A stretch of 64,000 nucleotides of DNA. Source: Octopus vulgaris. Taxonomy: Eukaryota. Each line of letters begins with the position of its first letter. Within the stretch, counting starts at the first letter, position 1. A program made the position numbers and the translations under genes. Shown piece after piece: positions 31,354 to 34,215 of this stretch. The DNA lies in assembly GCA_951406725.2 (NCBI GenBank), contig CATOCA020000001.1:744001-808000 (forward strand). The letters are read 5' to 3'. Below the pieces are notes generated by a model. The model saw nothing but the letters and a program-made list of their open reading frames with translations, was not told the origin of the DNA and made no database searches.

Positions 31354-34215
31354 GGGAGGGAGGGAGGGAGAAGTATGGTGTTTTATGTGGAGTAAAAGTA
31401 AGAGAGAGGATTTGAACATGTGATGTTGTGGTAATGGAGAATGAGATGAAGTGAAAGATCTAGTCAGGGACAGCAACAAGAACAACAATAACAACAAGAA
31501 CAACAATAACAAGAATTATGGCGGTGATTACTGAATAAAGTAGATGGTAGTGTCATTACAGTAAGAGAGAGAGAGAGAGAAGAAGAAGGATGACCCATGA
31601 TGCTGACTCACCTTAGAACTGCCTGATGGAGTAGTGTGTTACCAGATTTATCTCTTTTATAGTAATCAATGCTCGGATGCTGCAGTAAGAGATTAACTGT
31701 ATCCGCGTGTCCCTTGTCCCAGGCCTGGTGGAGTGGTGTGTACCCATTGATAGCCTCAGTATTTACATCAATAGCAGGGTGCTTCAGTAAATGCTTAACT
31801 GTCTCTATGTGTCCCTTGACACAGGCCCGGTGTAGTGGTGTGCACTGATTGCTATCCTTAGCATTTACATCAATATCAGAGTGCTTCAGTAGATGTTTAA
31901 CTGTCTCCGGGTGTGTCTTGTCACAGGCCCGGTGTAGTGGTGTGTCCTGATTGCTATCCTTAGCATTTACATCAATATCAGAGTGCTGCAGTAAAAGATT
32001 AACTGTTTCTGTGTGTCCATACCAACAGGCCCGGTGAAGGGGTGTGTACTGATCGCTATTCTTAGCATTTACATCAATATCAGAGTGCTGCAGTAGATGT
32101 TTAACTGTCTCCGTGTGTCCCTCGACACAGGCCATGTATAGTGGTGTGTACTGATCGCTATCCTTAGCATTTACATCAATATCAGAGTGCTGCAGTAGAT
32201 GTTTAACTGTCCCTGCGTGTCCCTTGTCACAGGCCCGGTGTAGTGGTGTGTCCTGATTGCTATCCTTAGCATTTACATCAATATCAGAGTGCTGCAGTAG
32301 ATGCTTAACTGTCTCCGTGTCTCCCGTGACACAGGCCCGGTGTAGTGGTGTGCACTGATCGCTATCCATAGCATTTACATCAATATCAGAGTGCTGCAGT
32401 AGATGCTTAACTGTCTCCGTGTGTCCCTCGACACAGGCCCGGTGTAGTGGTGTGCACTGATTGCTATCCTTAGCATTTACATCAATATCAGAGTGCTTGC
32501 AGTAGATGCTTAACTGTCTCCGTGTGTCCCTCGACACAGGCCCGGTGTAGTGGTGTGCACTGATCGCTATCCTTAGCATTTACATCAATATCAGAGTGCT
32601 GCAGTAGATGTTTAACTGTCTCCGTGTGTCCCGTGAGACAGGCCACGTATAGTGGTGTGTACTGATCGCTATCCTTAGCATTTACATCAATATCAGAGTG
32701 CTGCAGTAGATGTTTAACTTTGTCCGTGTCTCCCGTGACACAGGCCCGGTGTAGTGGTGTGTACTGATTGCTATCCTTAGCATTTACATCAATATCAGAG
32801 TGCTGCAGTAGATGTTTAATTGTCTCCGTGTCTCCCGTGACACAGACCCGGTGTAGTGGTGTGTACTGATCTCTATCCTTAGCATTTACATCAATAGCAG
32901 AGTGCTGCAGTAGATGTTTAATTGTCTCCGTGTGTCCCTCGACACAGGCCCGGTGTAGTGGTGTGCACTGATTGCTATCCTTAGCATTTACATCAATATC
33001 AGAATGCTTCAGTAGATGTTTAACTGTCTCCGTGTGTCCCGTGAGACAGGCCACGTATAGTGGTGTGTACTGATCGCTATCCTTAGCATTTACATCAATA
33101 TCAGAGTGCTTCAGTAGATGTTTAACTGTCTCCGTGTGTCCCTCGACACAGTTCCGGTGTAGTGGTGTGCACTGATCGCTATCCTTAGCATTTACATCAA
33201 TATCAGAGTGCTGCAGTAGATGCTTAACTGTCTCCGTGTGTCCCTCGACACAGGCCCGGTGTAGTGGTGTGCACTGATTGCTATCCTTAGCATTTACATC
33301 AATATCAGAGTGCTGCAGTAGATGTTTAACTGTCTCCGTGTCTCCCGTGACACAGGCCCGGTGTAGTGGTGTGCACTGATTGCTATCCTTAGCATTTACA
33401 TCAATATCAGAGTGCTGCAGTAGATGCTTAACTGTCTCTGTGTGTCCCGTGACACAGGCCCGGTGTAGTGGTGTGTACTGTTTGCTATCCTTAGCATTTA
33501 CATCAATATCAGACTGCTGCAGTAGATGTTTAACTGTCTCCGTGTGTCCCGTGACACAGGCCCGGTGTAGTGGTGTGTACTGATCGCTATCCTTAGCATT
33601 TACATCAATAGCAGAGTGCTGCAGTAGATGTTTAATTGTCTCCGTGTCTCCCGTGACACAGGCCCGGTGTAGTGGTGTGCACTGATTGCTATCCTTAGCA
33701 TTTACATCAATATCAGAGTGCTGCAGTAGATGCTTAACTGTCTCTGTGTGTCCCGTGACACAGGCCCGGTGTAGTGGTGTGTACTGTTTGCTATCCTTAG
33801 CATTTACATCAATAGCAGAGTGCTGCAGTAGATGTTTAACTGTCTCCGTGTGTCCCTCGACACAGTTCCGGTGTAGTGGTGTGCACTGATCGCTATCCTT
33901 AGCATTTACATCAATATCAGAGTGCTGCAGTAGATGCTTAACTGTCTCCGTGTGTCCCTCGACACAGGTCCGGTGTAGTGGTGTGCACTGATTGCTATCC
34001 TTAGCATTTACATCAATAGCAGAGTGCTTCAGTAGATGTTTAACTGTCTCTGCGTGTCCCTTGTCACATGCCCGGTGTAGGGGTGTGTACTGATCTTTAT
34101 TCAGAGCATTTACATCAATGCCAGGCTGCTGCAACAGATGTTCAGCAATTTCTGTTTGTCCGAGAGCACAGGCCAGATGTAGTAGTGTGTCACCATCTCT
34201 ATTTTGTTGATTTAT
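19289..34215 (-). CDS. Multi-exon gene: ankyrin-repeat array + C3HC4 RING + death domain protein (C-terminal half resembles MIB-type Ank-RING E3 ligases); 5' end not located; one +1 frameshift near 32498
   Basis: Seven exons with canonical AG/GT boundaries and matching intron phases (2,0,0,2,1,1). Summed length 2603+37+210+179+143+72+203=3447 nt (1148 aa + stop) after removing one base. Domains continue correctly across the splice junctions. Confidence 0.88.
19958..20258 (-). mobile_element. Full-length tRNA-derived SINE in the last intron
   Basis: Same family as 16372-16672; box B GGTTCGAATC. Confidence 0.8.
21559..21630 (-). CDS. Death domain exon 1 ([25 protein letters not shown])
   Basis: tttatttcag|GG acceptor; GTT G|GTGAGT donor; 72 nt, phase 1-1. 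The L..VA..LG..W..VG motif matches death-domain helices 1-2. Confidence 0.88.
22429..22885. repeat. Intronic minisatellite, about 57-bp unit x about 8
   Basis: Unit GATTATATATAACCTGACAAAGGGATATCTGACCATCATTATAATGATATCTATATA. Confidence 0.85.
24422..24564 (-). CDS. RING finger exon, C3HC4 (CLLC...[11 protein letters not shown]...CPKC)
   Basis: caacag|A TGT acceptor; TTC G|GTAAGA donor; all eight Zn ligands present with MIB/IAP-type spacing. Confidence 0.92.
25286..25464 (-). CDS. Exon with terminal ankyrin/linker ([59 protein letters not shown])
   Basis: tttgtag|TAC acceptor; CCA TT|GTAAGT donor; 179 nt open frame. VACFLA.NGA...N.....PLDL resembles the last ankyrin of MIB-type ligases. Confidence 0.88.
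26780..26989 (-). CDS. Exon with two divergent ankyrin repeats ([20 protein letters not shown]...GNNCLHLAV...VLDK)
   Basis: Pyrimidine tract + caaag|GAT acceptor; AAG|GTAAGT donor; 210 nt, phase 0-0. Confidence 0.9.
28410..29795 (+). mobile_element. Decayed R4/Dong-clade LINE 3' part (RT end, CCHC knuckle, restriction-like endonuclease), antisense in an intron
   Basis: [11 protein letters not shown] motif; [13 protein letters not shown]...HIISSC; RYDVVAR; VVEISCP...K..EK..Y; with stops and frameshifts. Confidence 0.8.
30711..30747 (-). CDS. 37-nt exon completing an ankyrin repeat ([13 protein letters not shown])
   Basis: tttcag|A CAA AGC...TCC CAG|GTTAGT; phase 2 in, phase 0 out; completes [11 protein letters not shown] with ankyrin helix 2. 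Confidence 0.85.
31612..34215 (-). CDS. Giant ankyrin exon (about 26 ankyrin repeats; 24 tandem 102-bp/34-aa units at 31671-34119)
   Basis: Acceptor ttcttttcag|ATA AAT CAA and donor CTA AG|GTGAGT. Consensus [34 protein letters not shown]. ORFs 32488..34284 and 31608..32579 are joined by a 1-nt insertion. Confidence 0.95.

Follow-up and report, generated by a model that had tools for sequence, protein, structure and literature searches.

An array of near-identical ankyrin repeats in the genome of Octopus vulgaris raises the question of what kind of gene would carry so regular a scaffold with so variable a binding surface. The array lies in a stretch of 64,000 nucleotides (NCBI GenBank assembly GCA_951406725.2, contig CATOCA020000001.1, positions 744,001 to 808,000 of the forward strand; hereafter the window, numbered from its first letter), where it was found to be one exon of a spliced gene whose product joins the ankyrin array, ankyrins of the MIB2 type, a RING finger and a Death domain. 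The gene evolves like the repeat domains of fungal NLRs; it is neither an NLR, as it has no NOD domain, nor a Mind bomb protein, as the front and the last RING of that protein are missing. What is known is thus the mode of evolution, from fungal NLRs; what is new is an animal family with a MIB2 parent and no NOD domain.

We think it somewhat probable that the product is a cytoplasmic sensor, in which a concave surface is remodelled by exchange of units together with selected changes, and in which the output is clustering of Death domains. Within the gene, units would overwrite one another as the groove positions diversify; the groove would bind proteins, as the ankyrin fold and the register of designed ankyrin repeat proteins (DARPins) suggest; its partners may, by analogy with fungal NLR repeats, originate from pathogens or symbionts; and binding would cluster the Death domains and so recruit a death or NF-kB adaptor. 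The retained RING would have a structural role or weak activity, with the main output lying elsewhere, and intact alleles would presumably exist, the frameshift described below being a consensus error. More tentatively, the gene may represent an undescribed class of octopus intracellular immune receptor, comprising dozens to more than 100 MIB2-derived genes with ankyrins, RING and Death domain (ANK-RING-Death), some of which would create new binding surfaces through shuffling and conversion of near-identical units, at such a rate that individuals, and perhaps cells, differ in how many units they have and in what order. Such genes would form a DARPin repertoire of natural origin, wired to Death-domain signalling directly and with no NOD switch.

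The array and the gene that carries it

The array consists of 24 units of 34 amino acids on the minus strand, from 34119 down to 31671, with a period of 102 bp, 24.2 copies and 90% nucleotide matches. A Pfam match identifies the units as ankyrins, and Pfam, modelled helix pairs and Foldseek agree on tandem ankyrin repeats with the TPLH motif; the mean identity of each unit to its nearest unit within the array was 0.95. An earlier note, made from the letters alone, had placed 24 minus-strand ankyrin units at 31671..34119, which period and Pfam bear out, and the variable diresidue that it listed at positions 13 and 14 was identical in 24 of 24 units (VE 8, VT 8, DK 4, LT 2, WY 1, VK 1). Its uniform 102-bp length applies to 23 of the 24; unit 16 is 103 bp long and its frame is shifted. 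The note missed this shift, as it did the remainder of the gene with RING and Death domain, the descent from MIB2, the gene family and the parallel among fungal NLRs.

Spliced joints tie the array to the other domains. In four sequencing runs from two studies, which we presume to be of RNA (this is not on record; the spliced joints are canonical), six introns were joined at canonical ends in all four runs, and a seventh joint was seen in three. The features of the gene are:

34949..35032, minus: first coding exon, with the ATG at 35032 and an N-terminal ankyrin cap (joint 34215/34949 in 4/4 runs; translation)
31612..34215, minus: array exon, 2604 bp as assembled, with one N-side ankyrin, the 24 units and the start of a further ankyrin
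31671..34119, minus: the 24 ankyrin units of 34 amino acids, variable at positions 3, 5, 13 and 14 (and 10, 11, 16 and 17)
32497..32498, minus: extra A in unit 16 (unit alignment, frame reading)
30711..30747, minus: 37-bp exon in which the ankyrin stack continues (joints in 4/4 runs, GT/AG boundaries)
26780..26989, minus: MIB2-type ankyrin exon (41% to the exon of the MIB2-like gene on C26 via relative protein P0001, same phases)
25286..25464, minus: MIB2-type last ankyrin exon (52% to the C26 exon via P0001, same phases)
24422..24564, minus: RING finger exon (C3HC4_3, Pfam above cut-off)
21559..21630, minus: first Death-domain exon (joints, match to P0001 166-191)
19289..19491, minus: second Death-domain exon and stop codon (Pfam Death above cut-off, joint in 3/4 runs)
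34201..50845, no strand: one arm of an inverted segmental duplication (91-96% identity to L021-L023)

The Death domain was recognised whole by Pfam in P0001 (E 6.6e-10). Only the extra base interrupts the continuity of the exon phases; by coordinate arithmetic, the product of an intact allele would be about 1,176 residues long. Over 235 bases at the end of the array one contig showed 0 differences from the window, against 10 in the nearest paralog; the window locus is therefore transcribed. The closest named proteins, from O. vulgaris and O. sinensis, are labelled MIB2-like and start after the array.

At groove position 13 of unit 24 (31715..31718, minus strand) the window encodes Asp, and contigs of two of the four runs encode Gly; the underlying change, 31717 T>C, is present in runs X9 and X15 and absent from X10 and X14, all with the same organism label, and C is not the paralog's letter. 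This is a single site and not a survey. Eight further differences between mapped reads and the window, in the downstream exons (19442-26873), all change an amino acid, and three of them are the paralog's letter. Letter differences from runs X2 and X8, which carry other organism labels, fell on library positions in 8 of 24 rows; they could not be assigned to a locus and were not used.

DARPin libraries vary positions 2, 3, 5, 13, 14 and 33 (PMC8248824; this and the other papers are cited from extracts of their text), and the register was checked against DARPin sequences. Over the 23 regular units, unit 16 being excluded, the four most variable of the 34 columns were library positions 14 (1.72 bits), 3 (1.34), 5 (1.34) and 13 (1.31). 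Averaged over the six library positions, entropy was 1.21 bits, compared with 0.56 over nine further exposed positions, a list of our own choosing based on ankyrin topology, and 0.30 over the remaining columns; for the excess at library positions P was 2e-5 when six columns were taken at random and 0.002 when the comparison was confined to exposed columns. The variation that had been claimed for the DARPin positions therefore stands for 3, 5, 13 and 14 but not for position 2, which is near-fixed; positions 2 and 33 are S and K, respectively, in 20 of 23 units. The scaffold had also been described as nearly invariant, which overstates its constancy, as columns 17, 10, 11, 16, 25 and the last residue vary as well (0.76-1.05 bits). 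At most variable sites two states predominate (N/D, C/Y, E/T), and the alphabet is not a randomised one.

In a single-sequence structure prediction of the first 338 residues, the best of five models had a predicted local distance difference test score (pLDDT) of 89.4 and the other four 40-72. The array is predicted to form two helices per 34 residues, with positions 3 and 5 in a loop and positions 13-14 ending the first helix; variable sites were placed through the DARPin register and secondary structure and not on the model surface. The top Foldseek match of the array model was the extended DARPin 6mol, with a template modelling score of 0.79, and ankyrin-1 was also matched. Each unit holds about 4 His and 1-2 Cys, and Arg is near-fixed at groove position 10 (20 of 24 units); the His and Cys content of the sequence makes some metal or redox sensitivity possible.

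Origin from MIB2 and the octopus family

A gene on C26 that bears the MIB_HERC2 domain matches the window gene exon by exon, with five intron positions in the same phase; the first coding exon matches the MIB2 exon that precedes the MIB2 ankyrins, with a phase 0 donor common to the C26 gene. A MIB-like gene on C13 matched far worse than the C26 gene. The window RING matched the first RING of the C26 gene at 47% (E 5e-14) and its last RING at E 0.009. Because of the five shared intron phases, the exon-by-exon match and the match of the RING to the first RING, sequence comparison indicates that the gene derives from the ANK-RING1 half of MIB2.

Like MIB2, it has the ankyrin cap, the last ankyrins and the first RING, with five intron positions common to the genome's MIB2-like gene. 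Unlike MIB1 and MIB2, it has no MZM/REP front and no terminal catalytic RING after a coiled coil, and a Death domain has been added; unlike MIB2, it has one array exon in place of the internal ankyrin exons, and dozens of paralogs. The absence of the front follows from an in-frame stop just upstream of ATG 35032, and none of the 10 genome matches of MIB_HERC2 lies on the window's contig. Only a homologue of the first RING is present, followed directly by the Death exons; the terminal catalytic RING is gone. ANKDD1A/B likewise have ankyrin repeats and then a Death domain, but are listed without a RING family.

What the remaining RING can do bears on an alternative that we consider rather unlikely, namely that the protein is a variable substrate receptor joined to a ubiquitin ligase, in which proteins from viruses, transposons or parasites are bound by the array and tagged for destruction by the RING, and the Death domain serves oligomerisation alone. 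All eight zinc ligands are kept in C3HC4 spacing, databases name the family 'MIB2-like E3', and some relatives keep both RINGs or an Arg after the last Cys pair; the database names are automatic, however, and the window RING has Gln at a position where many active RINGs have Arg. The window RING is moreover homologous to the first RING of MIB2, a type inactive in MIB1: in the extracts of bioRxiv 10.1101/2024.03.01.582834, self-ubiquitination was absent when MIB1 RING1-2 lacked the last RING, and the last RING of MIB2 is the homologue of the active RING of MIB1. Since the window RING is of the first-RING type, the family kept Mind bomb parts that are not needed for ligase activity in MIB1, lost the substrate-binding front, and has its Death domain where the catalytic RING of Mind bomb was. 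According to the same extracts the concave ankyrin face of MIB1 is conserved, whereas in the octopus gene it is the variable part.

Between the recent duplicates (the window gene and L024), identity is 92% (19289-19491) and 87% (21559-21630) in the Death exons and 87% in the 37-bp exon, but reaches 98-99% in the exons for the RING and the MIB2-type ankyrins and 93-97% in most introns. On these identities the Death domain may itself diversify, or the tracts of conversion may differ.

The family has at least 56 genes, a Death exon being found downstream in 56 of 78 clusters of ankyrin and RING (ANK/RING) exons. Genome matches of the Death exon number at least 119, of which the window's contig carries 42 and C29 carries 38; 59 of the 119 have a same-strand ANK/RING exon match less than 40 kb upstream of them, against 2 in the opposite-strand control (the pairing used 122 of 150 listed rows; 13 rows that were Death exons and 15 that belonged to a single tandem locus were excluded). 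All 30 protein representatives that were picked are named from three Octopus species, in a search not aimed at other cephalopods. A protein search with the array gave no close relative among the matches listed, which were 16 generic ankyrin proteins at 29-45%, and no orthologous array from another species was present among the stored database proteins examined. An atlas search returned MIB-like and ANK-RING clusters at 0.93-0.94, which serve as leads only.

The family was not described in the works found by literature searches, whose coverage excluded supplements and subscription journals, and a look-up of terms found no mention of it in the extracts of PMC9068888, PMC13218726, PMC11463336 and bioRxiv 2024.05.23.594666. 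Tables of gene families in cephalopod genome papers may include it. A cuttlefish paper describes a decapod-restricted RING family of 103 copies. The octopus gene family is large and apparently undescribed; it is hidden under automatic 'MIB2-like' labels, and the annotated proteins nearest the locus begin after the array.

Other members differ in the form of their ankyrin exons. A close paralog at L030:3407-6643 (G000:C8, minus) has an unbroken frame of 1,079 codons with 31 ankyrin units, which form a higher-order repeat of three to four units and show no excess change in the groove. In many members (L042-L081, L086 and L099, many of them on C31), isolated ankyrin exons of about 170-250 bp replace the array exon, and one O. 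sinensis family locus has 14 annotated isoforms; isolated exons and isoforms together may represent the same variation in the form of cassettes. Beside the duplicate pair stands a third, more distant ANK-RING-Death gene (L025-L026, G000:C31:848-865 kb, minus), whose ankyrin exon is short and unhomogenised. Tandem runs of MIB2-type ankyrin segments occur at G000:C1:216.93-216.97 Mb, C1:102.71-102.73 Mb and C9:9.57-9.59 Mb; those on C1 are about 3.5 kb apart and span two family exons without an intron.

Unit exchange and change at groove codons

An inverted duplication of at least 16 kb, with arms of 91-96% identity, contains the gene, and its other arm, beyond the end of the window, holds the paralog L023. 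In this neighbouring duplicate, which is 96% identical, the array has 28 units, against 24 in the window, and its exon is 408 bp longer than an in-frame exon of 24 units. For 21 of the 24 window units the nearest neighbour lies in their own array; one is tied, and two, including the last, are nearer to the paralog. In a four-gamete test all four combinations were present in 18 of 66 informative site pairs, and the incompatibility observed (0.31) was approached in simulations with partial conversion (0.34) but not in those without (0.02), from which we conclude that the units are mosaics exchanging sequence. Together these patterns indicate that the array undergoes concerted evolution, its units being mosaic and homogenised within each array.

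Among units 1-23, the pairwise ratio of nonsynonymous to synonymous differences (pN/pS) was 3.5 at the six library positions and 0.77 elsewhere. The groove ratio was 2.6 in L023 and ranged over 4.0-5.9 in a group of five C29 arrays, which are related and have another unit type. When the six positions were set beforehand, a codon model gave omega 2.7 versus 0.96 (likelihood-ratio statistic 11.0), and the same model gave 3.9 for L023 and 5.2 for the pooled C29 arrays. In forward simulations with a neutral groove, P for the window array was 0.032-0.035 (ratio) and 0.001-0.002 (groove pN), for L023 0.014-0.019 and for L087, a C29 array of a different unit type, 0.036-0.037; with the CpG variants of the simulation included, the ranges were 0.010-0.019 for L023 and 0.027-0.037 for L087. 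Tenfold CpG mutation changed the window result little (P = 0.022-0.035), and CpG hypermutation was rejected as the sole cause of the groove excess. A tree-free test was passed by five of seven arrays, four of the five being related C29 paralogs; L090 failed (P = 0.16). The groove positions thus likely diversify under positive selection, as judged from codon comparisons. Entropy and dN/dS, which the earlier note had proposed to compare codon by codon, came out higher at the groove codons, rather than no higher than elsewhere, the outcome it had named as adverse.

The frame of the window array is interrupted in unit 16 (32589-32487), where the extra A at 32497-32498 causes a frameshift and a stop at 32490 after 603 codons, so that the array as assembled forms two overlapping open reading frames. 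The sequence at this point looks like a cross between the Gln and Lys codon variants found at the corresponding place in other units. Clean one-base slips also occur in the homogenised arrays L023, L089 and L095 of the same assembly, where the well-aligned ones sit in short one-letter runs or where unit variants differ; none was found in arrays L030, L087 and L090. Contigs without the extra base fit other units of the array equally well and so are not decisive; nor is run X9, which has no cover in the bin that contains the extra base. The extra A is consistent with an error of the consensus, but also with real slippage.

Several results weigh against the sensor reading. The frame is broken as assembled and that of L023 has two breaks, and both copies could be real pseudogenes. 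Over all 24 units the tree-free minimum-change test gave omega 1.6 and P = 0.11; it was significant only in units 2-20, a subset picked after inspection of the data. The codon model is inflated, because the units recombine, with omega outside the groove at 0.96-1.76, and constraint outside the groove is weak in the window array (pN/pS 0.77-1.05). Older arrays show no groove excess (L030 0.97, L034 0.82, L069 1.29). Of 66 loci scanned over 10 kb each, a span that misses arrays further upstream, 8 contained a homogenised array; among 21 annotated proteins the number was 0. Finally, the best solved match of the Death domain was ankyrin-3 (E 0.013), before Fas and TNFR1; as all of these matches are weak, death signalling is a putative output.

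The breaks in the frame (one in the window copy, two in L023), the tree-free result over all 24 units and the non-groove pN/pS near 1 are also what a neutral by-product would leave behind: slippage and unequal crossing-over would enlarge and homogenise the exon, an unconstrained, exposed groove would drift, and the copy would be a decaying pseudogene. Several of the dimorphisms are, in addition, CpG transitions. We nonetheless hold this account to be unlikely, as groove pN exceeds the neutral simulations even with conversion or CpG hypermutation, the groove columns exceed the other exposed columns in variability (P 0.002), the same positions stand out in the unrelated unit type of C29, and the downstream exons are in frame and spliced.

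Comparison with fungal NLRs and designed repeats

In fungal NLRs, highly conserved ankyrin repeats have been reported with polymorphic repeat number and selected sites on the concave face, and such highly conserved repeats make up 0.8% of metazoan ANK/TPR/WD repeats (extracts of PMC4986451). The examples compared here, from the same extracts, were Podospora Pa_3_8560 and Pa_2_8180 and a Chaetomium protein of 21 repeats. Like these, the octopus gene has near-identical ankyrin repeats, exchange between repeats and differing repeat numbers, with the variable or selected sites on the concave face, in its hairpin and inner helix, and a signalling-type domain joined to the repeats. The array exceeds the 85% identity across 100 or more amino acids by which conserved repeats are defined in fungi; positive selection on the concave face, likewise a feature of the fungal genes, is seen at P about 0.03, the tree-free test for 24 units being non-significant. 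Unlike the fungal genes, the octopus gene has no NACHT or NB-ARC domain: neither Pfam family was found in the open reading frames of the window or in 13 relatives, and the exon chain leaves no room for one. Its repeats are N-terminal and its RING and Death domains C-terminal, it is an animal gene with a MIB2 parent, and its difference in repeat number is known between paralogs only, not between individuals.

The fungal NLRs with conserved repeats include allorecognition genes (extracts of PMC4986451 and PMC12222747), and the octopus surface might similarly read polymorphic octopus proteins, in allorecognition, gamete or cell identity or antagonism with selfish host genes, as in Podospora het-e/het-d. 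The signature in the sequence would be the same for self and non-self ligands. We regard self-recognition as quite improbable, in that no partner locus linked to the gene came to light, in an analysis not aimed at one, and at least 56 clustered genes would fit broad surveillance at least as well.

With DARPin libraries the array shares a consensus-like scaffold, and its top four variable columns are library positions; unlike them, it has a 34-amino-acid unit, mostly two states per site and near-fixed positions 2 and 33, and its variation lies in series within one long protein, not across clones. The 'modular code' that had been proposed exceeds the evidence, because variation is spread over 4-6 groove positions per unit, recombines within units and runs in an order not distinguishable from a shuffled one (8 adjacent identities between diresidues, P = 0.11, a single test); no clear higher-order period was found in the window array. 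TALE repeats are near-identical tandem units of 34 amino acids that read DNA through an adjacent variable pair, and the array, too, has 34-residue units with an adjacent variable pair in six states. A code of this kind, in which each diresidue would read one base or polymer monomer, is nevertheless very improbable and was rejected, the likeness drawn in the earlier note being unsupported: the fold is an unrelated, ordinary ankyrin fold, the units are net acidic as read from the sequence, several sites vary in each unit, positions 3 and 5 being equally variable, the pair is mostly one variable site because 17 of 24 units have Val at position 13, and there is no sign of DNA binding.

Little is known about the means by which cephalopods detect pathogens inside their cells. 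A concrete candidate for this role is the present family, with its large size, clustered genes, fast diversification, variable binding surface and Death domain. If the sensor reading is true, it would extend the repeat evolution of fungal NLRs to an animal family without a NOD domain, and evolution would have arrived at the very ankyrin positions picked by protein engineers for variation. Compared with a DARPin library or a TALE code, the single array is less striking; the family that it revealed is large and directly testable.

Two further features were noted in the window. A GIY-YIG endonuclease frame at 56489-57040 on the minus strand, identified by Pfam, probably comes from a Penelope-like element. 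A high-copy repeat at 35700-36520 on the plus strand has very high contig depth and no Pfam match, and its frame resembles the tail of a LINE reverse transcriptase.

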